IMG/VR virus record: IMGVR_UViG_3300027763_000034
Location: 1 to 64,000 of that record
Length of the DNA stretch: 64,000 nt
Direction: 5' to 3' (one strand)
Origin: a virus
Part shown: positions 572 to 21,963 of the stretch, in pieces
Layout: every line of letters starts with the position of its first letter
Numbering within the stretch: the stretch's first letter is position 1
Notes under the pieces: model-generated
What the model was told of the DNA's origin: nothing
What the model saw: the letters and a program-made list of their open reading frames with translations, nothing else
The model's database searches: none
Made by a program: the position numbers and the translations under genes

Positions 572-1576
572 TTATTTTTGATGGGTCCAAGATTGATATT
601 CAATATTGGAAACTGCGTTTTTAATACAGGCTTTAATTTCCTCTTCGGTCAAATCGCCAGCATCTTTTGCATCATGTGGATATATCTTACCATATTCATA
701 CGAAGCCCACAAGAGGTCTTTATTCTTTAATCTAGATGCTATGCTGTTAGCAAGCTCACGCCCAGCATGGTCCGCATCGGTCATTAAGGTGACCTTATTA
801 AAATATCTATTTATTAATGCCAAGTTTTCTGTGGATATATGGCCACCAAGTGTTGCAATAACATTGGGGAACCCAGCCTGATGCACACGGATTGCATCAA
901 AGCTAGACTCTACAATAATAACATTGTCACCTATTTTTTTAGCACGGTGAATGTTAAACATAGTTTTACTTCTTGGCAAATTAGTACTGTTCTTAAATTT
1001 CTTTTCTGATATTGATCGGCCAACAATACCAACTGCGAGTCCGTCTGGACTGTGTACTGGAACTGTAACCATGTCTTGTTTTGGAGAGTAGCCCAAAGAA
1101 AAATGAGCAATTGAAGACATATCAATGCCTCTAGACTTAAAATAATTTTGTGCCTCTTGGCTAGAAACCAAATCATTATATAAACTCTTTAATATCTCTT
1201 CTGGGAATTCTACAAAGTCTGGCTTATCTTCCATCACATCGCTTAGCAGGTCGTCAAAATTTTCTAATGTCTCGGCTTCTTTTGAATAAACATATCTCAT
1301 TGCTTCAAAATCATTCTTGTGTAAAACTCTTTTAACTATCTCTATCAATGATCCAGTTTCACCACATGCTGGATTAAAACACAACCATGCTCCAGTTGTT
1401 TTACTTATACTACAGCTTGCACTATGTCTGTTGGAATGAAATGGGCAGTAGAAAGAGATCTCTATATCTGTTTCACCAGCTACCTGTAAGCCAAGGCTTT
1501 TTACAATTGCCTTTATATGCTGCTTAGAGTATTGCGTGGTATCAGCTTTCCTTGCGTAATTGCTTCGTGCCGCCAT
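572..1576 (-). CDS. DNA primase (zinc finger + TOPRIM)
   Basis: CPFH..C..C zinc finger, YFKSRGI, TOPRIM VIIVESSFDAI and LMTDADHAG, DAGD. The ORF extends to 1627, but the start at 1576 is more likely. Confidence 0.92.
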   Translation of the reverse strand: MAARSNYARKADTTQYSKQHIKAIVKSLGLQVAGETDIEISFYCPFHSNRHSASCSISKTTGAWLCFNPACGETGSLIEIVKRVLHKNDFEAMRYVYSKEAETLENFDDLLSDVMEDKPDFVEFPEEILKSLYNDLVSSQEAQNYFKSRGIDMSSIAHFSLGYSPKQDMVTVPVHSPDGLAVGIVGRSISEKKFKNSTNLPRSKTMFNIHRAKKIGDNVIIVESSFDAIRVHQAGFPNVIATLGGHISTENLALINRYFNKVTLMTDADHAGRELANSIASRLKNKDLLWASYEYGKIYPHDAKDAGDLTEEEIKACIKNAVSNIEYQSWTHQK

Positions 1577-1803
1577 GCCGTCTTCTTTCCTACATATGTT
1601 CCATAGAGTGTCATTAAGAACATCCATGTCGTGCCGTCAAATTCTACCGAAAAATTAGTATCTATGTCAAGCACCCTAAGATACCCTTTGTCTCTCATTT
1701 GGTGCGTAAGCATGCTTTCATATTGATGCTTAATGCGAACCATATCAGAGTCGTCAAGGAATTCAACTCTAACCTGGAATCTTTTTATCGGTTTGTGATT
1801 CAT
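1513..1803 (-). CDS. hypothetical protein between helicase and primase
   Basis: ORF MNHKPIKRF... overlaps both neighbours, as expected in an operon. Confidence 0.6.
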   Translation of the reverse strand: MNHKPIKRFQVRVEFLDDSDMVRIKHQYESMLTHQMRDKGYLRVLDIDTNFSVEFDGTTWMFLMTLYGTYVGKKTAWRHEAITQGKLIPRNTLSSI

Positions 1804-3031
1804 TATTTTGGAACGGATTCTCATAAATCTCTTTGACGATACCTTTGTTGATATCCCAATCTAAGTATAAACCAAATTCATGCCCATGTCGATTTTTTCT
1901 TGAGACAATCTCAATCATATTAGTGCCTGGGTATTTATGTACTGCCATAGCCATATCGGCATCGTATTCAATAGCCTTTGACCAAGCAACCTGTGACATC
2001 ATTGGTGGATTGTCTTGGTCTGAGACATCGTCCGCTGTCGCTGCAGTAATATCAATGATAGGAATGTTGTTTGATACTGCAAGCATCTTAAATTCACGAG
2101 AAACATTTCGGTTTCTTTCAACTTCAGAATTGCTTCTCTTGTTGTCGTTAAACAGCTGATGGTAGTCAAGGATAACTAGGTCTGGCTTATGCTGATCTAT
2201 CTTGCCTTGAATAGTTGCTGGGGTAACTTCTGTATTGCCCTCGTTTGAAATAAGAATAAAACTATTTTTATCTGCAAACTTTTTTGTAGACCATGATCGG
2301 AAATCATCAATATTGATATCCCCCCTAGAGAAATCAGAAGCTTTAAATAAACCAGATCCAAGCATTGTGTAAATGCGATCACGCATATTTTCTGGTGACA
2401 TCTCAAGAGAAACAATCATTGGTTTAAATCCTTGCTCCCAAGCTTTGCATGCAAGGTAAGAAGTGAACCAAGTCTTTCCACGACCTGGCCAACCAATTGC
2501 AACAATCAAATGTCCTGGGGCCATTCCAGTTGGGTATGCCAAATCAATTGCCTCAAACCCTGTTTTAATTCCTGGTGAGCCACCCATTTCTGCGGAGCGC
2601 TCTCTCAACAATTCCATATATCTAATTGCAGACTCTGCATCTGTAATATCTAAGTCTCGAACGTTATTAGTAAACCTGCTTAATCCAGCTAATTGTGACT
2701 GCATGTTTTCAAGAACTCTTGATGCGGCATCTTCTTTGAGTGATGATCCTGCACGAAGAATAATAGTCTTAAGTTTGTTAGAGATAAATTCATTCTTAAG
2801 TGTATCTAGGTAGTATCCAGTTTGTCCTTTAACATCTACTGGCTCAAAGTCTTTAAATTTTTCCTGTAAGATTCCAGCCTCTGGAACTGCTTTAAACTTA
2901 TAGTAATAAGACTTTAGCCCATCCCAAATGTCTTTATGTGATGTAAATAGGTCGTCTACGTTATCTGCAAGTAGTGTGCTTATATCTTTATTTTTACATA
3001 CCGCTGAGATTAGTTCCGCTTCTGTATTCAC
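1769..3031 (-). CDS. dnaB: replicative DnaB-like (SF4) helicase
   Basis: IKTGF..ID, Walker A GWPGRGKTW, SLEMS, Walker B LVILDY, IEYDAD, KNRHG. Confidence 0.95.
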   Translation of the reverse strand: MNTEAELISAVCKNKDISTLLADNVDDLFTSHKDIWDGLKSYYYKFKAVPEAGILQEKFKDFEPVDVKGQTGYYLDTLKNEFISNKLKTIILRAGSSLKEDAASRVLENMQSQLAGLSRFTNNVRDLDITDAESAIRYMELLRERSAEMGGSPGIKTGFEAIDLAYPTGMAPGHLIVAIGWPGRGKTWFTSYLACKAWEQGFKPMIVSLEMSPENMRDRIYTMLGSGLFKASDFSRGDINIDDFRSWSTKKFADKNSFILISNEGNTEVTPATIQGKIDQHKPDLVILDYHQLFNDNKRSNSEVERNRNVSREFKMLAVSNNIPIIDITAATADDVSDQDNPPMMSQVAWSKAIEYDADMAMAVHKYPGTNMIEIVSRKNRHGHEFGLYLDWDINKGIVKEIYENPFQNNESQTDKKIPG

Positions 3032-13331: not shown

Positions 13332-13792
13332 TATACCTGTTCCAGTGTTAGACTTACATCCCAAAATTCTTGTGGATCTACTCCGCTTACCATTTTGACA
13401 TTTCTCTTATTAACAGTAAAGCTGCAGTTTGTTATCATTACAGAAATTATTTCATCTCTTGCAGAAATTCCGTTATAAGATATTTTTAATTTAAATGCGC
13501 CAGTTCCTTTACCTTTATAAAAAGACCTAATCTGCTCTGCACCGTAACCGCCATCTACTGTCATTGTATCTGTTGATGGAAGTAAAGTCCATGAAACTTG
13601 AACTGATGATTTATCTGCAATAAATATTTTACGCATTGTGCCATTAGCCATGCGCTCTGATCTTTCAATTCTATTTGAATCTATTGATACTGGCTGTCTA
13701 TTATGCTCAGACAACTTGGTCCAGGTGGGAGTAATTGCATTTGTACCTGTGTCTATAAATAGTAGTGAGCCTACTGGTAAAGTTAGTGCCAT
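13331..13792 (-). CDS. distal tail (Dit-like) protein
   Basis: Directly follows the tape measure; RMANGTMR motif, C-terminal WDVSLTLEQV. Confidence 0.7.
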   Translation of the reverse strand: MALTLPVGSLLFIDTGTNAITPTWTKLSEHNRQPVSIDSNRIERSERMANGTMRKIFIADKSSVQVSWTLLPSTDTMTVDGGYGAEQIRSFYKGKGTGAFKLKISYNGISARDEIISVMITNCSFTVNKRNVKMVSGVDPQEFWDVSLTLEQV

Positions 13793-16700
13793 TATGTTCT
13801 CTTTACTCCTACCATTTTTTCATTTTGCTTTAGCGTAGCCTGCAAAAATTCAACTGCAGCAACCTTTGCTTTAGTTATTAATTGAGCTTCATTCATTCCT
13901 GGGGAAGCATGGATATGTTGTGTGTAATTAATTATACCTTGTCCTGCATTTGCATCACGCATTGGCTCAAACATTTTTGCTGCTTGATTAACATCGTATC
14001 TTGGAGATGCATATGGAATCTTTGCCATGTTTGGAATAACCATTCCGCCAAATGCCATTTCTGGGCCACGATCTCCAACAATTGTAGGAACCTTTGGATC
14101 AAGTCTCATTGTTCCATATCCAGCTTTTTTAGTAATAGATAGTCCAGCTCTTCCGCCATCACCAGAGACTACCCATTTTTTACCATCTTTATCCAAAAAC
14201 TCTACGCCAACCCAAGTGCTGCTTCTACCAGATGCATCCATCTTTTGAGTTGCTCCAGCTTTTTGAAGTTCTTGTGGCTGAATAAATGTAGAGCCAGAGT
14301 ATGCTCCATTTCCTGCTGGTATTGTGGTTGGTACCGTTGAAAGTTTTGCCATTCCAGTTGTTTTGCCCATATCAATCTTTTTGCCATTAACTATTAAATC
14401 ACCGTTTAAAGTAATTCCAGATTTTTCTAAAGCAGCTTCAATTCCAGGAGCAACTTTATCAAATAATTCTTGTCCTGCTTTTATGCCAAGATTTCCATCT
14501 TTGTCTTTACTTAATCCTGTTGTATCAACTTTAGCTGCAGTTGCTGCTGCAGTTATAGCTGCAAGCATACCTCTATATTCATCTGTTGTTTTCCATTTAG
14601 CTAAATCATCTTTATGTTTGGTTATAGCCATTTGATAAGCAGTAATTGCTTTATTAAATGCATTCATTGGTGTTTCTAGCTTATCAATTTCCTTAGTAAG
14701 GTCTCCCATTTTTTCGCCAGCCAAAGCAGCAGCATCTCCCATGGCCTGCTGTTTATTACTAATAGCCTCAGCTTGTTTTTTAAGTGGTTCTATATCTGCT
14801 TTTGCTTTTGCATCAATAGCTTTAATTTGTTGATCATATTGTTGCCCTTTAACAAGACCTTCTAAATCTAACCTTGCCTGTTGTGCGCCAGCAGTATTGC
14901 CAGTTGCTTCAGCATTTTGCAATTCAAGCTTTTTAGCTTCAATTGCTCTTCCAGTATCCTCGGTATTCTTTTTATCTTCAAGGGCTTTTTTTCTAGCATC
15001 AGCAAGTTTATTAATTGCATCAATTTGTTTATTAATTGCGGCAAGTCTATCTCTATCTGAAATTTGAGCTGCTACTGATTGGCCTTTCATGGCCTTTGTA
15101 TATTTTTCTTGCAAAGCTTTAAGTTTATCTAATGAATCATATTGTTTTTTTAGAAGACCAACTCTATTTTGTCCCTCAACATTTGCTGCAACTGCTTCCG
15201 CCATCTTATAAAGTGCTGCTGTTTGCTGTGCATTTAATGCAGAAAGGTCTCCAGTATATCCTCTTGCTTCAAGTCTAGTTTTTTGCCATAGACTTAATAC
15301 AGTATCTTGAGTAGTTGCAATTTTTCTAATCTCTGGATTTTCTTTTGCTAGTTCGTCAATTGTTTCTTTTGTTAAAGTTCCCTGTGTTTTAAGCTTTCCA
15401 TTAATAGCATCAAGAGTTTGAGATTCCGCATCTAATTTCATTTGATCTAATTCACCAGTACTAATAAATGAAGGTTTTGTTTTATCCTTTTTTCTTGCTT
15501 TTAGCATTTCATTATATTTAGTTGATATTGCTGTGTCTGTGCCCATCAATGCGGTATTTAATGCATTAGCCTGCTCAGTTGCATCTCTATTTGTTGAAGC
15601 CGCCTTATCGTATGTTCCAATTGCTCCTACTGCTCCAGTAACTGCATCTTTTCTATTTACAAATCGGCTATTGCCAAATGTATATAGTGAGGCAGAGGCT
15701 GCTTTATTTGAAAGCTTATACATAGTATAAATTTTTGCTGTGGCTTGTTCTGCTGACATTCCCATGGCAATAAATTGTTCTTTAAGTCTTACTGCTAAAT
15801 CTGCCTGATCTTTTCCACTTGTTTTATTAATTAAAGCAATTTGATCTTTGTATGTAGACTTAACTTCAGTTTTTAATTTTTTGTATTGCTCAATAGTTAA
15901 TTTAAGTGGGGTGCCAGATGTTGTCATGCTTTCATAAAGCATTTTATTATGCTCAATAACAGACTTAGCATCTGTTACTACATCTTTCATTTTGCCATTA
16001 AAATCAGTAAATTTAAGTCCAGCTTTTTGTGCAGCTTCTGCAGTCATGCCGTATCCAAGTGCATTTAATCTCATACTTTCGTTATGAGCTTTCCATACCT
16101 TAATTCCAATTGTTATTGCAGTCACTGCACCAAATGCAATCAAATTAAATCTTGTCATAGCAAGACCAAGCTTTCCAATAATTCCTTGGAATCTTTTTCC
16201 GCTAGAAGCCATTTCTGTCATTGCAGTTCCATATTTAGTAAGTCCACCAGTTTTTCCAGATATTACCCCAACTGGTGTTGTCATAGAGGCTGGCAACTTA
16301 GACATTAATCTTCCGCCTTTACCACCTTGTCCTAATGTTGCAGACTGCATCATCATTGGCAACATAAATCCTAATTGTTGCACTATCATTGATGCTATTG
16401 GGTTTGCAATCTTACTTGCAATCATTCCTGCTCCAACCATTGCTGCAATACTTCCAGCAATTTGTCCGCCAGCGCCATATTTATTTGGAATAATTCCTCC
16501 AGCATTTCTAGGAACAAATAACTCTGGGCCTTTTTCTCCAACAACATAAGGCTGTCCAGCATTAACTGGTCCGCCCTTTTCTCTTCCTTCTAAACCAAAG
16601 ATAATCTTTTTTAGAGATTCTGTAAGAGGAGTATCTTTTTTAGATTCCCAATTTAAATACTTATTTCTTAAAATGTCTTTGTCTATTGGTGATAGTTGTT

Positions 16701-19700
16701 TTAATACAGACCTATCTCCAATCAAATCTGATGCGGCTGATCTTACAACTGAGTCTAGGATGTCTGGTTCTAGTGCATTTTTTAATGAACCTTTTGCATC
16801 TTTGACATAACCATAAGGCTTTTCTTTTGCAAGAGCTGCTGCAAATTTATCGTAGAATAATTTTTGAGTATGCTTTCTTAATCCAGTATTTGCAAATAAA
16901 GTATTGGCCATTTCAATAGAAAGTGAATTTACACCCCATGGCGCTGACTCATACATACTTGGCTTTGGTGCACCTGTTGGTCCAAATCCTGCACCTATTC
17001 TATGCATTGCTTTACCCTTTAATACGTTACCAATCATTCCACCAATTGCAAATCCATTTGCTGAAGATTTAAATCCAGCATCAGATAGGCTAACAATATG
17101 GCCAGACTGTCTTCTTTTTAATTCTTCTGCCGCTGCAATTTTAGCAAGGGCTGCTGGTGTAAGATTTGTTTCTTTTGATGCAACAACTGCTGAGTGTACG
17201 CCATGAAGTTTATTCCAATTAACATCTCTTGCATCTTCTAATCTTTGAATCATCTTTGCGTAAATAACTTTTTCTTCTTGATTTAGATCAAAACTTCCAA
17301 TAGTCTTTTTTAATCTTGGCAAAGTTGTTTCAATTTCTGAAAGCATTCTTGAGTGATACGCATCCGCTGTCATTCCAGCAGGAATATCCATTGTTGATTC
17401 AGCAAAGAATTTCTTTGCTCCGCTTCCCTTTACTCCAAGCAAATTAATCATAGCTTGATTGCCAACAGATGGCATCATTGCTGAATAGTCTCTTACGCCA
17501 GAAGCAGTTGAAAATACCCCAGCTGTTCCAACATCTGCTAAAACATTTCCAGATAAATTACCTCTGCCTAAATCTTTATCCCCACGAAGTGATGAAGCAA
17601 GCAGCTGTCTAAAATATTGATCTGTTGTAAATTTGCCATCTTGGACTGTGAGTGCCTTATCAAATTGTGATTCAAGAACAAGAAGCTTTCTTAATCCCTT
17701 TGGATCAGTTGGATCACGCATTACATTAACGCTTTGTTTTGGAGCCTTTAGCCCATGTGCTTCACGAGCAATTTGTGTTGCTCTCATTTCAGCAAGTGCA
17801 GCTTTTTCGTCAAGCATTGGTTTAACAAAAACCTTTTCGCCATTTCTTGTATAAACTCCGCCAATTCCAGGAACTGGGAAACTTCTTCCAGATGTAGGCT
17901 CTAATAAATCTCCATACTCTGTTACTGGGTGCCTTGCAAATCTAGAATCTTTTACTGCAAGATCTGCTTTCTCCATTGCTGCTTTCATTGCTCTTTGTTG
18001 TTCTACCTGCTTAATTGTTTTAGGTATACCAAGGAACATTGCTTTTCCTCCGCCAAATAATCTTTGTGCAAATGAACCAGGAATCTCTCCACCCGAATTT
18101 GCTGCAATTTCTCTTGTTAGCGGAAGGGCTCTACCTCTTGTAAGAAGAAGCCTCATCATCTGAGTAATCATATGACCTCTTTGAATTACAGGCATTCTTT
18201 TAATAAGGTTTTGTGCATTTCCATATTTAAGCTCTTTTGCTAGCAAGTCTGCAGTTTCTTTTGCAGCATTTCCAGTCAAAGGTACTCTATCTACAAATTT
18301 ACCCTGTGTCATTGAGGCTAGCCAATTTGTAAAGCTATTAACTTTACTGCTTCCTGCCATTGCCAAATATGCGTTTCCTCTTGTCCTATTACTCTTTAAA
18401 TTTCCATTTTCTGTAGTAAAGAAATTTCTATCCTGATCTAAATGCTCTGAAGCATAATCAAGTTTTCCATTTGATGTAAATGTATTCATTACTCTCTGTA
18501 AAGAAACTTGATCTATGTCTGCTCTGGCCATAAGAGCAGCAACCAAACTTCTAGATGGCTGAACTCTTGAATTTGCCGAAGGCCTTCCACCAGGTTTTAG
18601 TTCTTCTGGTTTATCTTGCCATAATAAATCTTTATATTTTGCTTTTGAGGTTGAACCATCTTTATTTACTACTGTTCGTCCCATTCCCTGCATATCAATA
18701 TACTCTTGCATGCGTCTGGACTGCTCTATTCTAAATCTATTAAAAGCTTTTCTATCTACCTGACCAGTTTTTGGATCTTTAGTTCTTTGCATAGCTTCTT
18801 CAAAATCTCTTTTTGCCATAGAGACTGCTTCGTCTTCACTAAATCCTAAATGATTTAATACTGCTGCATCGTGTAATATGACTCTATTTTTTAAAGATGC
18901 GTCATAGCTAGGATCTGAATTTCTTGTTAGCCAGCCCTTTAATCCAGTAAATAAGTTTTCTGAAAGTCCTCCTCCAAGATTTCTTCCAAGGCCAGATGTA
19001 TTTCCAGGCCCACCATTTAATGCATGCATTAGTGGCATATTGTCTTGTGCAATATCTGCTGGAACGACTGCTTCGCCAGGTGTTAGAACTACTGGTACTT
19101 GACCTCCATCTGCAAATGTTGGGGTTCCGCCAAGAAGATTGCTTATGATTGGCATATTTTCTTGTGTTGATTTTTTATTAATTACAAATGATCCAGCCTC
19201 AGCTGTTGTATGGTATGTATCGCTATTTCCTGTTCCAGGGACTATTCCTCCATCTGCAAACTTAGGTTTTGTTGTTTGAATATTATATCCTGCGCCTGAT
19301 GTTCTAACTCCACCAAGTGCTCTTGCAATCTTATCAACAATATCTTTTGTTGTTCCTTTATGGAACATTTCCTTCATGTTTGATTTTCCAGTTAAAGGGT
19401 CTACCACTGGTTGTGCTGTCAATGGGACTGTAGTTAGATTTGCAACTCTTCCCATGCCAGCTGCAGTCGCTGCTGCAGTTTCGGCAAGCATTGCTTCTAC
19501 GGTTGCATTCATTGAAATAACTTTTGCTCTTGCCTGATCTACCGTTATTTTGCTTGCTTGAAGTTCTGCAACAATTGCTTGTGTTTCAGCTGCTGCAAGT
19601 TGAGTAATCTCAGAAAATTGTGGAAGGAGTGCTTGATATGATTCTGCCAAACTAGATGTAATTGTTCCAGTAGCCATGACTTCTGCTTTTAATGTTTTAA

Positions 19701-21963
19701 TTTCTGCTTCTGACTGCATCGCTATTGCTGCTGTCATTGCATGCCATTTTGCTGCTTCTTGTGCAACAATGCCAGTAGATGTTCCATTTACTGATGTGAC
19801 ACCAGGAATCTTTGGCATATCTTGATTCATATATGCTTGTGGGTTTTTTCCAATTCTTACATTAACTGGGCCTGCTCCAGGAACTGTTCCAAATATTGTT
19901 CCCATTTGTGGGCTTTGTGATGGTATGAGATGCGACATATCTCTTGAATATGGCTGTCCTACTAATGGGTTATTTTTATCTACAACTCTTTGGCCTGCTC
20001 CGCCAGAAGCAATTACTCCACCTGCTACGGTAGATATTGCTGGTTGGACTGCAACTTTTGCTGCATTTGCTTTAATCTCAAGATTATTAAATGATTCTGT
20101 TAAAGTATTTACTGCATTTGATAATACAATTGTTGCTTCTGAATCTGAATAAAATGATGTTGCTAATCCTTTTGCTGCTGCTTCTGCAGCCATTATTTCT
20201 GGTGTTAGTAACTTGAACCCTTGTCCACCCTTTGCAAGTTGTCTTAAATGGAAAATTCCTTTTATAACATAACCAATAAAGTTACCCATAACACCAGCCA
20301 ACATAATGAGTGGTCCAGCAATTGCTGTTATTCCACCTAATGCATTTAAAAATGTTTTAATTGGTCCTGGCAGGTGCTGGAAAAATTTAATAATAGAATC
20401 AACAACTTTTAATACTTGTGTGCTTATTTTTAAGAACTGCTCACCTGTTTGTGCTAAATCTGCTTGTACTGAAGCCCATGCTCTTTTAAACTGTCCAGAG
20501 GCTGACTCTGTCATAAGCTTTAATTCTCGCTCGGATATGCTTGCAAGGTCTACTGCACTTGCTTTCATTAGATCCATAACTTGAAGCGTTTGTGAGCCCT
20601 GTTTGCCTAAGTTTTCAAATAGTGCAGACATTCTTGCAAACTGAAACTTACCAAATAATTGTTCAATTGCTCTTGATTTATCTAATGGATTTAGTTTATC
20701 TAGTGCTGATTGCAGTGCCATGATGGTTCCCGTTAAATCACCAGCATTAGTATTTACTATACCCTTTAAATCAATTCCAAACGATGCAAACTGTTCTGTT
20801 GCAACTTTAGTTGGATTAATAAGTGATGCCATTGCTGACTTGATTGCATTTGCACCTTCGGCAGCATTTACTCCACCTTCTTTCATTGCTGTAAGGTATA
20901 GTGCTAAATCTTTTACATCTCCGCCGAGTGCTTTAATTACTGGGCCAGCTTTTGGAATTGCTTCAGTTAAATCTGCAAGGCTTGTTGATGTCTGGTTTTC
21001 AACTGCGTTGAGGAAGTCAATTGATTGTGTTAATTCTTCTGTGTTTTGTTTAAATGCATTTTGAATAGCAAGAGTTGCTTTCATTGCATCTTGTCTATCA
21101 ACTTCTCCAAGTACTGCAAGTCTTGTTGTTTGCTGTGTGGCCTGAAGTAAATCATTACCTTGTTTACCAGTTGCAGCAAGGTCTGCTGCTAGGGAGATTG
21201 TGTCTTTAAATGCAACACCATATGAACCAGCAATTTCTTTTGCTGTGTCAGAAACATCTTTTCTAACTTTTGCAAGTTCTTGAGATGAAACTGCTGACAG
21301 CCCACCATAAACTTTTGTAAGTCTTACTAATTCTTGATCAGCTTCTTTAAATGCTTTTTGTGCAGCCATTCCAAATGCTGCAAGGGGTACAGTTAATCCA
21401 ACTGTTAATTGGCGACCAGCCCACTGCGTGTTTTTACCCCAGTTAATAAGTTGGTTAGATCCATCAAGCATAACCTTATTCATGATTGCTGCTTCTTGGC
21501 GAGCAAGTGCCATCTTATTTTTTACTTCATCAAGACCTTTTGCAACCATTACGTTATACTGCATTAAGCCCTGTGCATTTTTACCAACAGGTTGAACTAT
21601 TGCTTGCTGCAGCATTACCTGCTGTTTTGCAAGATCTTTAATTAAATTGCTAGTCTTTTTTGTATGGCCATTCCAAGCATTATAATAATCGTTGAGCTTT
21701 AAACGGCCTCTATCTAAGTTCTTTCCGAACTTGTCTACGTCTGAAGATAGTGATACAAAGTGTGAGGAGAACTGGCCAGTTGAGCGCATCGTTTCTGCAA
21801 ACGATTTGTTCATTACTGCAATTTGATTTGCAAGCTTAGCGTTAGTTCCCGCTGTTGTTTCTTGTAATTTTACGAGTTGGGCAGTAACCGCAGCTAGCTG
21901 AGTTCTTAAACTCGTAAAGTCTGCGTGGGCGGTAATATTGGTCGTGATTAAATTATCTGCCAT
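13792..21963 (-). CDS. tape measure protein with inserted cargo domains (including a kinase-like domain)
   Basis: 2723 aa directly after the tail chaperones. TP901-type TMP core (GRQLTVGLTVPLAAFG...EQLFGK), hydrophobic TM-like segments, GGPV...VGEKGPELFVP motif. Confidence 0.95.
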   Translation of the reverse strand: MADNLITTNITAHADFTSLRTQLAAVTAQLVKLQETTAGTNAKLANQIAVMNKSFAETMRSTGQFSSHFVSLSSDVDKFGKNLDRGRLKLNDYYNAWNGHTKKTSNLIKDLAKQQVMLQQAIVQPVGKNAQGLMQYNVMVAKGLDEVKNKMALARQEAAIMNKVMLDGSNQLINWGKNTQWAGRQLTVGLTVPLAAFGMAAQKAFKEADQELVRLTKVYGGLSAVSSQELAKVRKDVSDTAKEIAGSYGVAFKDTISLAADLAATGKQGNDLLQATQQTTRLAVLGEVDRQDAMKATLAIQNAFKQNTEELTQSIDFLNAVENQTSTSLADLTEAIPKAGPVIKALGGDVKDLALYLTAMKEGGVNAAEGANAIKSAMASLINPTKVATEQFASFGIDLKGIVNTNAGDLTGTIMALQSALDKLNPLDKSRAIEQLFGKFQFARMSALFENLGKQGSQTLQVMDLMKASAVDLASISERELKLMTESASGQFKRAWASVQADLAQTGEQFLKISTQVLKVVDSIIKFFQHLPGPIKTFLNALGGITAIAGPLIMLAGVMGNFIGYVIKGIFHLRQLAKGGQGFKLLTPEIMAAEAAAKGLATSFYSDSEATIVLSNAVNTLTESFNNLEIKANAAKVAVQPAISTVAGGVIASGGAGQRVVDKNNPLVGQPYSRDMSHLIPSQSPQMGTIFGTVPGAGPVNVRIGKNPQAYMNQDMPKIPGVTSVNGTSTGIVAQEAAKWHAMTAAIAMQSEAEIKTLKAEVMATGTITSSLAESYQALLPQFSEITQLAAAETQAIVAELQASKITVDQARAKVISMNATVEAMLAETAAATAAGMGRVANLTTVPLTAQPVVDPLTGKSNMKEMFHKGTTKDIVDKIARALGGVRTSGAGYNIQTTKPKFADGGIVPGTGNSDTYHTTAEAGSFVINKKSTQENMPIISNLLGGTPTFADGGQVPVVLTPGEAVVPADIAQDNMPLMHALNGGPGNTSGLGRNLGGGLSENLFTGLKGWLTRNSDPSYDASLKNRVILHDAAVLNHLGFSEDEAVSMAKRDFEEAMQRTKDPKTGQVDRKAFNRFRIEQSRRMQEYIDMQGMGRTVVNKDGSTSKAKYKDLLWQDKPEELKPGGRPSANSRVQPSRSLVAALMARADIDQVSLQRVMNTFTSNGKLDYASEHLDQDRNFFTTENGNLKSNRTRGNAYLAMAGSSKVNSFTNWLASMTQGKFVDRVPLTGNAAKETADLLAKELKYGNAQNLIKRMPVIQRGHMITQMMRLLLTRGRALPLTREIAANSGGEIPGSFAQRLFGGGKAMFLGIPKTIKQVEQQRAMKAAMEKADLAVKDSRFARHPVTEYGDLLEPTSGRSFPVPGIGGVYTRNGEKVFVKPMLDEKAALAEMRATQIAREAHGLKAPKQSVNVMRDPTDPKGLRKLLVLESQFDKALTVQDGKFTTDQYFRQLLASSLRGDKDLGRGNLSGNVLADVGTAGVFSTASGVRDYSAMMPSVGNQAMINLLGVKGSGAKKFFAESTMDIPAGMTADAYHSRMLSEIETTLPRLKKTIGSFDLNQEEKVIYAKMIQRLEDARDVNWNKLHGVHSAVVASKETNLTPAALAKIAAAEELKRRQSGHIVSLSDAGFKSSANGFAIGGMIGNVLKGKAMHRIGAGFGPTGAPKPSMYESAPWGVNSLSIEMANTLFANTGLRKHTQKLFYDKFAAALAKEKPYGYVKDAKGSLKNALEPDILDSVVRSAASDLIGDRSVLKQLSPIDKDILRNKYLNWESKKDTPLTESLKKIIFGLEGREKGGPVNAGQPYVVGEKGPELFVPRNAGGIIPNKYGAGGQIAGSIAAMVGAGMIASKIANPIASMIVQQLGFMLPMMMQSATLGQGGKGGRLMSKLPASMTTPVGVISGKTGGLTKYGTAMTEMASSGKRFQGIIGKLGLAMTRFNLIAFGAVTAITIGIKVWKAHNESMRLNALGYGMTAEAAQKAGLKFTDFNGKMKDVVTDAKSVIEHNKMLYESMTTSGTPLKLTIEQYKKLKTEVKSTYKDQIALINKTSGKDQADLAVRLKEQFIAMGMSAEQATAKIYTMYKLSNKAASASLYTFGNSRFVNRKDAVTGAVGAIGTYDKAASTNRDATEQANALNTALMGTDTAISTKYNEMLKARKKDKTKPSFISTGELDQMKLDAESQTLDAINGKLKTQGTLTKETIDELAKENPEIRKIATTQDTVLSLWQKTRLEARGYTGDLSALNAQQTAALYKMAEAVAANVEGQNRVGLLKKQYDSLDKLKALQEKYTKAMKGQSVAAQISDRDRLAAINKQIDAINKLADARKKALEDKKNTEDTGRAIEAKKLELQNAEATGNTAGAQQARLDLEGLVKGQQYDQQIKAIDAKAKADIEPLKKQAEAISNKQQAMGDAAALAGEKMGDLTKEIDKLETPMNAFNKAITAYQMAITKHKDDLAKWKTTDEYRGMLAAITAAATAAKVDTTGLSKDKDGNLGIKAGQELFDKVAPGIEAALEKSGITLNGDLIVNGKKIDMGKTTGMAKLSTVPTTIPAGNGAYSGSTFIQPQELQKAGATQKMDASGRSSTWVGVEFLDKDGKKWVVSGDGGRAGLSITKKAGYGTMRLDPKVPTIVGDRGPEMAFGGMVIPNMAKIPYASPRYDVNQAAKMFEPMRDANAGQGIINYTQHIHASPGMNEAQLITKAKVAAVEFLQATLKQNEKMVGVKRT

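Follow-up and report, generated by a model that had tools for sequence, protein, structure and literature searches.

The 64,000-nucleotide stretch of viral DNA that we analysed (hereafter the window; positions 1 to 64,000 of IMG/VR virus record IMGVR_UViG_3300027763_000034) contains a gene for a tape measure protein (TMP) whose modules are swapped at conserved Gly-Gly joints and which includes an intact kinase; the ruler of this phage's tail therefore probably serves, in addition, to bring ready-made proteins into the host. Our reading as a whole, in which an array of modules fenced by these joints lies in one loop of the TMP and is delivered to the host cytoplasm, is in our judgement reasonably likely. 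The parts of the gene on which the argument turns are listed below, with nucleotide positions in the window and amino acid (aa) positions in the protein.

13792..21963, minus strand: the whole TMP gene (P0001), a single open reading frame (ORF) of 2,723 codons plus stop.
20251..20355, minus strand: hydrophobic region 1, aa 537-571, at or above 1.5 in a Kyte-Doolittle scan with a 19-aa window.
19117..19275, minus strand: copy 1 of a Gly-rich unit, aa 897-949, starting KFADGGIVPG; GG 905/906 and 945/946 are invariant.
18967..19116, minus strand: N-terminal part of unit copy 2, aa 950-999, reading FADGGQVPVVLTPGEAVVPA...HALNGG and then PGNTSG...NLGGG.
18103..18966, minus strand: variable cassette of type A, aa 1000-1287, predicted to be helical; identity to homologues falls here.
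18046..18102, minus strand: C-terminal part of unit copy 2 and joint, aa 1288-1306, reading ANSGGEIPGSFAQRLFGGG, which matches the end of the unit consensus, INSGKIPGFAKGG.
17053..18045, minus strand: module D2, aa 1307-1637, a HipA/CtkA/PI4K-like kinase domain.
17038..17052, minus strand: joint FAIGG, aa 1638-1642, with F and GG invariant; a disordered linker in the AlphaFold2 (AF2) model, with a breakpoint at aa 1637-1642 in relatives L050-L062.
16585..17037, minus strand: module D3, aa 1643-1793, the most conserved part of the TMP and without a family match.
16465..16584, minus strand: unit copy 3, of GExGPE flavour, aa 1794-1833, reading REKGGPVNAGQPYVVGEKGPELFVPRNAGGIIPNKYGAGG; PHROG TMP families 1538, 5062, 8892 and 10574 match it with their C-terminal ends.
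16087..16461, minus strand: hydrophobic region 2, aa 1835-1959 (segments 1835-1853 and 1932-1959), from the hydropathy scan.
14029..14103, minus strand: terminal unit remnant, aa 2621-2645, reading VGDRGPEMAFGGMVIPN; the pattern GE/D-x-GPE...GG-x-[VI]-IPN, as at aa 1808-1826, was read directly from the sequence.

A preliminary description of this stretch had proposed a polymorphic system of effector delivery, with GG motifs as sites of proteolytic release or as recombination joints, and had named an alignment of related TMPs as the check. In that alignment the variable domains begin and end at the GG joints, where modules are swapped, deleted and replaced, so that the homologues are not a colinear set lacking exchange at the motifs. 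Read from the alignments, module gain, loss and replacement occur by recombination with breakpoints at the fences. In aa 1-1000 the homologues are 80-95% identical to the window TMP. In aa 1001-1300, and exactly there, the figure is about 30%; it recovers to 70-95% as far as aa 1825 and is 30-65% from there on. In relatives otherwise 85-96% identical the cassette is replaced by unrelated sequence. Some carry about 220-250 aa of other sequence in its place, with breaks at q999 and q1285-1289 (P0033, L024, L036 and others; q denotes positions in the window TMP used as query), and every relative with a swapped cassette has its first breakpoint at aa 999-1008. L052, L060 and L062 lack D2 through a clean deletion, which leaves ANSGGEIPGYVGGG directly before AIGNVLKG at the junction. 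In L050-L059, q1000-1637 is replaced by a single module of about 250 aa ending KFSGGG, followed by MIGNVLKG, and a 175-aa insert follows q1833; in L049, q1003-1596 is replaced. The 175-aa insert, which lies before hydrophobic region 2 at aa ~1460-1635 of the TMPs of L050, L051, L053, L056, L057 and L059, represents an extra module slot that is empty in the window TMP.

The modules also assort independently. P0038 is 96% identical in the N-terminal flank, 28% in the cassette and 91% in D2, and P0010 is 91%, 95% and 70% identical in the same three segments and 40% in the C-terminal half. Nucleotide identity between the window and L041, L046 and L008 rises from about 50% to 97-100% at codon ~1300. 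Pairwise identity change-points, the counts of which are phylogenetically non-independent, peak at aa 900-910 (in unit copy 1), 990-1000, 1280-1299, 1630-1649 and 1820-1839; change-points in synonymous identity only also occur at aa ~900, 1290-1320, 1660 and 1790-1830. The synonymous divergence (dS) of the modules of a single pair differs many-fold (ten-fold or more). In the Q-L002 pair the units have a dS of 0.05 and the other modules about 0.5, and between L012 and L017 D3 and the distal half have a dS of 0-0.008 (0 in D3) and the cassette 0.88, which points to very recent exchange between co-occurring phages. Among the homologues compared, we found no relatives with the modules as separate genes.

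The nine GG motifs that had been listed are all where they were said to be, in one minus-strand ORF of 2,723 aa: FADGG at aa 902 and 950, NLGGG at 995, ANSGG at 1288, LFGGG at 1302, FAIGG at 1638, REKGG at 1794, YGAGG at 1829 and MAFGG at 2636. The segments between them, put at about 285, 330 and 150 aa, measure 288, 331 and 151 aa, and hydropathy places these polar segments, as had been described, between the two hydrophobic regions; every module lies in the loop of aa 572-1834 that joins those regions. The recurrence of the motif was thus confirmed, with a qualification. Bare xxxGG is within chance, the nine having been picked from 28 sites, whereas the extended forms are far beyond it. The TMP has 28 GG against 21.7 in shuffles (P=0.09), but [FY]A.GG has 3 copies where 0.14 are expected (P=0.0008, shuffles), and GG.[VI][PG][GNV], at aa 905, 953, 1291, 1641 and 1822, has 5 copies where 0.05 are expected (0/5000 shuffles).

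Across 107 full-length homologues there is no variation in twelve joint Gly-Gly pairs that lie between aa 900 and 1835 (in unit copy 3 these are GG 1797/8, 1822/3 and 1832/3, with breakpoints at aa 1820-1839). The residues just before them vary freely, with at least four residue types at aa 995-996. Two glycines of the nine listed motifs do vary, the third in NLGGG and the second in MAFGG (76/107). The joint glycines use 3-4 codons, and codon-pair identity is 0.44 at the joints versus 0.50 at other invariant glycines (P=0.24). Since the invariant joint glycines are no more conserved synonymously than other invariant glycines, the constraint acts on the protein, and this codon use shows no DNA-level recombination signal at the joints. 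The earlier term "recombination joints" is thus apt for the module breakpoints and not for the DNA. The breakpoints probably cluster at the joints because only recombinants at module boundaries survive.

The joints proved to be whole or partial copies of a Gly-rich unit of about 55 aa, of which the (F/Y)AxGG motif of the preliminary description is the bracket. Its consensus pattern is hydrophobic-A-x-GG-x-V...PGE-A-V-I-P...N-x-G-x-IPG-hydrophobic-A-x-GG. A hidden Markov model (HMM) of the unit, built from 300 "PGEAVIP" stretches of distant relatives, has the consensus KFAAGGVV...PAMLTPGEAVIPA...AINSGKIPGFAKGG and gave these scores:

This TMP, aa 897-956: 34.9 bits.
This TMP, aa 955-991: 31.8 bits.
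Lambda gpH, 731-794: 18.2 bits.
Streptomyces phage BoomerJR TMP, 1663-1696: 16.4 bits.
Best of 1000 shuffles: 5.7 bits.

In the window TMP the unit is laid out as two tandem copies at aa 897-999, the GExGPE copy at aa 1794-1833, the terminal remnant, which the HMM of PGEAVIP flavour did not detect, and short remnants at the other joints. The cassette splits the second copy, so that the order reads HALNGG, PGNTSG...cassette...AANSGG, EIPGSFAQRLFGGG and KAMFLG (D2); in distant relatives the unsplit form reads MIAG, NIPGYAKG and VMLG (D2). The earlier statement that the motif is usually found once near TMP C-termini was borne out. The C-terminal ends of PHROG TMPs match, with aa 1794-1841 and aa ~900-956 matching those of several PHROG TMP families, and the segment of lambda gpH hit by the HMM reads FATGG...RGEFVF...YATGG, directly after a Gly-rich stretch. 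We found 1-5 units in each of 115 distant giant TMPs, and in 97 of these a unit lies at most 160 aa from the C-terminus. The unit is not modelled in Pfam, whose Tape_meas_lam_C spans gpH 627-701 only. The TMP of BoomerJR, a cultured actinophage (L063; 2,093 aa), has a second weak unit-like stretch near its C-terminus at aa 2009-2057, and the sequence between its two unit-like stretches looks by eye like a candidate M23 peptidase.

It is possible, though in our view doubtful, that the joints are Gly hinges left by serial fusion of TMP C-terminal units, with a role in spacing or packing alone; breakpoints would then cluster at them since recombinants broken inside domains die. The joints do fall in low-confidence, disordered stretches of both AF2 models, change-points are also found at sites without GG, and the joints carry no DNA-level signal. 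Simple linkers tolerate substitution, however, whereas neither GG nor the hydrophobic residue at -3/-4 changes in the 107 homologues, even at the cassette edges. The excess of the extended pattern over expectation and the conservation of the unit from this phage to lambda also argue against a mere hinge.

The proteolytic half of the earlier proposal corresponds to a polyprotein, in which the GG joints would be cleavage sites, for a phage or host protease or for an activity of the TMP itself, and processing in the maturing tail or once the TMP has been ejected would free the cassette, the kinase and D3. We consider this unlikely, although comparable cuts are known. Self-cleavage at a Gly-rich site occurs in the Tal proteins of the lactococcal phages Tuc2009 and TP901-1. 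Lambda gpH is processed to gpH* and gpHC (about 14 kDa) by a cleavage in the Gly-rich region immediately upstream of its homologous unit, the exact site and the protease being unmapped (PMC12617516). The T5 protein pb2 is cut between a hydrophobic stretch and a peptidase domain, and the piece stays in the tail tip (PMC10038345). Invariant GG pairs amid varying neighbours, constrained at the protein level, would also be expected of cleavage sites. On the other side, the T5 cut follows Arg and not GG, the conserved unit of about 55 aa exceeds what a cleavage site needs, and the lack of relatives with separately encoded modules counts against the idea. Nor did we find a protease domain in the TMP or the neighbouring tail genes: there is no peptidase domain in the ten genes downstream of the TMP, and the Prok-JAB peptidase (PF14464) was absent from a search of the genome. 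A more specific version is less likely still. Here the reiterated lambda-gpH-type unit would be the processing signal, with the TMP cut at each fence to release the kinase and an exchangeable effector to the cytoplasm before the DNA, and the same unit would determine gpH-type cleavage in ordinary siphophages.

Delivery of the loop modules, which we favour, may leave them tethered or follow their release. The cassette occurs as at least five sequence types, of which A, B and E are remote homologues by hhalign and C and D are unrelated to these and to each other. Within a type the ratio of nonsynonymous to synonymous divergence (dN/dS) is 0.03-0.25, which marks the cassette as a constrained domain and rules out fast positive selection as the source of its variability; by this measure the variability arises by replacement and not by rapid change. 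In the AF2 model of aa 895-1310 (mean predicted local distance difference test score, pLDDT, 62.6 for the whole model) cassette A is mostly helical. A few polar residues (HD, EH, GN...A.AG...N..T) are invariant across cassette types that are 25-30% identical. Searches of Pfam, PHROG and PDB sequences gave nothing usable for cassette A, D3 or eight other cassette types, and the ESM Atlas gave no usable match for cassette A. The best structural matches of the cassette A model were likewise not usable (Foldseek, E=0.7, a FIC protein; VIA wide, Z=4.2). A search of shorter proteins gave no stand-alone homologue of cassette A, and the cassette was seen only inside TMPs.

These properties could also be explained if the cassette were part of the entry apparatus instead of an enzyme carried as cargo, contacting a host membrane protein during DNA entry or serving as the target of superinfection exclusion, with replacement amounting to host switching or escape. 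The exclusion lipoprotein Ltp targets the TMP. Exclusion lipoproteins of the Ltp type occur widely among phages of Gram-positive bacteria (PMC3952083), and a passage of PMC5099701 cites genome injection by HK97 as requiring the inner-membrane protein PtsG and the chaperone FkpA. Replacement of whole types combined with purifying selection within them is the pattern of receptor-binding modules, and the confinement of the cassette to TMPs fits as well. Against this, the invariant polar residues look like an active or binding site, which is weak evidence, and the cassette shares its loop with a kinase that must work in the cytoplasm. We place this explanation on the unlikely side, and return to the delivery of the modules with the kinase.

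The 330-aa segment that had been called kinase-like has, in its model, a kinase fold with intact catalytic residues, and it lies outside the named curated families. The AF2 model of D2 has a pLDDT of 70-90 over aa ~1316-1600, and all of its top Foldseek matches are kinases (best E=3e-3). The VIA Z values, which are moderate, were 9.8 for CtkA (199 aligned residues, root-mean-square deviation 4.3), 8.4 for PI4KIIalpha, 7.8-7.9 for HipA and 7.8 for LepB. The beta3 Lys, the helix-C Glu, the catalytic-loop Asp and Asn and the DFG-like Asp are all present: K1381, E1392, N1469 and D1477 occur in 129/129 sequences and D1464 in 128/129. A Pfam search of aa 1306-1642 at E up to 5 returned zero matches, HipA_C, PI3_PI4_kinase and Pkinase included, and at the sequence level only a language-model search led to kinases. 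A profile search with D2 returned 186 clusters, nearly all of them giant TMP-like proteins of 2,000-4,468 aa, in which many copies lie at aa ~720-1010, directly after a unit. The one D2 carrier tested, P0150, has the same PhageMin_Tail N-terminus. Elsewhere in the window TMP, a match to an EcKL kinase at aa 729-788 (E=0.008-0.04, below the cut-off) was treated as chance.

D3 is 78-99% identical in nearly all relatives, distant architecture variants included, and 59-60% identical in the long variants P0029 and P0103. Its dN/dS is 0.03-0.08 in divergent pairs; AF2 predicted it poorly, and Pfam has no match for it. The earlier word "polymorphic" fits the cassette slot at aa 1000-1287 and no other module, the kinase being optional but conserved and D3 being present in every full-length relative seen. 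Identity in the segment beyond the loop falls into classes that assort independently of the N-terminal half:

14344..16086, minus strand: long helical distal half, aa 1960-2540, a mosaic with identity classes of about 90, 68, 50 and 40%.

Some relatives (P0029, P0103, P0072, L013, L019, L049 and L061) continue far past aa ~2533 with extra sequence at the C-terminus and reach 3,000-3,729 aa in all. The extra sequence was scanned in two of them, P0029 and P0103, without a Pfam match, and in the long relatives P0029, P0103 and P0150 PhageMin_Tail is the sole Pfam match.

The window protein is identified by its sequence features as a TP901-type siphovirus TMP. Pfam PhageMin_Tail (PF10145) matches aa 238-438 (E=1.5e-27; 97.2 bits against a curated cut-off of 33.2), the gene sits in a siphovirus-type tail module, and long helical stretches accompany the two hydrophobic regions of the protein. 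Its alignments to nine PHROG TMP families span aa 1-850. Upstream lie genes for an immunoglobulin (Ig)-domain protein and a major-head-like protein, and downstream those of the minor tail proteins phrog_10359, 9983 and 11445. Window positions 572-3031, a short way downstream of the tail module, hold genes on the same strand for a DnaG-type primase (Toprim and zinc ribbon) and a DnaB-like helicase. A megablast search of the TMP gene against INPHARED phages gave zero matches, and by tblastn known TMPs resemble only aa 6-669, at about 33% identity (Streptomyces and Gordonia phages). The TMP has more than 536 homologues, mostly 2,650-2,790 aa long. The source record of the window is a 116,155-bp virus record rated complete. 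A scan of genome contigs returned a single 2.5-kb contig from a bin of a Bacteroidia metagenome-assembled genome (MAG), which is too weak for naming a host. This contig (L065; JBBALJ010000198.1, 2,548 bp) encodes a D3 with 90% identity and is probably a phage fragment.

Ordinary TMPs, lambda gpH among them, have one unit just ahead of a hub-binding C-terminal tail. In the window TMP the loop between the hydrophobic regions, about 130 aa long in TP901-1, has expanded to about 1,260 aa and forms beads on a string: an exchangeable cassette, an optional kinase and the highly conserved D3, fenced by whole or partial units. We propose the following mechanism. The TMP would exit the tail before the DNA does, insert its hydrophobic regions into the cytoplasmic membrane and expose the module loop to the cytoplasm, where the ATP-requiring kinase and the variable cassette would act on host targets, tethered or after cleavage. 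The need of the kinase for ATP fits exposure of the loop to the cytoplasm in either state. The fences are probably flexible, extended joints that allow the modules to be stored unfolded or in line within the narrow tail lumen, and they may be processing sites too. In TP901-1 the 129 aa between the two hydrophobic regions of the TMP are predicted to be cytoplasmic (PMC5099701), and delivery by TMPs has precedents in the pb2C peptidase of T5 (PMC10038345) and the virion RNA polymerase fused to the TMP gp96 of P23-45 (PMC10770324).

Several points weigh against this reading. Doubt that the two hydrophobic regions both span the membrane is expressed in the TP901-1 paper itself (PMC5099701), and entry of the loop into the cytoplasm is argued only by analogy with that other phage's predicted topology and from the need of the kinase for ATP. 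The phage is uncultured and known from sequence and models alone. To call the cassette and D3 "cargo" is an assumption, and polymorphism is not seen in D2 and D3, which are conserved. There are synonymous-only change-points at aa 40-60 and 270 as well, where there is no GG joint, so recombination is not confined to the fences, and the non-independence of the pairwise change-point counts, noted above, weighs in the same direction.

TMPs with embedded enzymes are already known (TM4, T5 pb2, P23-45 gp96), and the window TMP shares some features with each. In lambda gpH the unit at 731-794 comes after a hydrophobic Gly-rich stretch and before the hub-binding tail, like the terminal copy here, but it is a single unit and there are no embedded folded modules, whereas the window TMP has reiterated units fencing three domains. 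In T5 pb2, too, an enzymatic domain adjoins a hydrophobic stretch, and the tail stores it until it is expelled during infection (PMC10038345); in contrast to the three internal modules of the window TMP, one of them a kinase, that domain is single, C-terminal and muralytic, acts in the periplasm and is cut off after Arg1127. Pfam searches found no peptidoglycan hydrolase in the window TMP. The 5,002-aa gp96 of Thermus phage P23-45 is also a giant TMP that brings a cytoplasm-acting enzyme into the host (PMC10770324), although the enzyme is single and N-terminal, and no motif-fenced array or cassette exchange is described. The TP901-1 TMP has the same PF10145 N-terminal domain and two hydrophobic regions and differs in the length of the sequence between them (PMC5099701). 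TMPs of the mycobacteriophage TM4 type contain small Rpf-like or peptidase motifs that vary among related phages (PMC1796659), but these are peptidoglycan-hydrolase motifs, and neither a recurrent fence motif nor a kinase is described.

Polyvalent proteins (Iyer et al. 2017, PMC5512222) are similar in concept, being unrelated domains in one polypeptide that are delivered with the DNA, shuffled and sometimes processed. TMPs are mentioned 0 times in that paper, and Pfam finds none of the hallmark domains (MPTase, ArdC-N, ParB-like, methylases and others) in the window TMP. Unlike polymorphic toxins of the Rhs or CdiA type, this TMP has no variable C-terminal toxin with an adjacent immunity gene; the cassette is internal, and the next gene downstream encodes a conserved tail protein. 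In the literature we found no description of a motif-fenced array of exchangeable modules in a TMP, or of a kinase embedded in one.

TMPs are usually viewed as rulers and DNA conduits. That more than 500 TMPs form a family equipped with a swappable cassette and an intact kinase suggests that the tails of siphophages can deliver host-directed proteins, which would parallel capsids with internal proteins. TMPs with several copies of the unit offer a direct way to ask whether its role is in cleavage, as a hinge or in docking, given that lambda gpH has one copy, near its unmapped cleavage site. Experiments on the unit could be done in the cultured phage BoomerJR. Searches for determinants of anti-defence or of host range may find a new target in the exchangeable slot.

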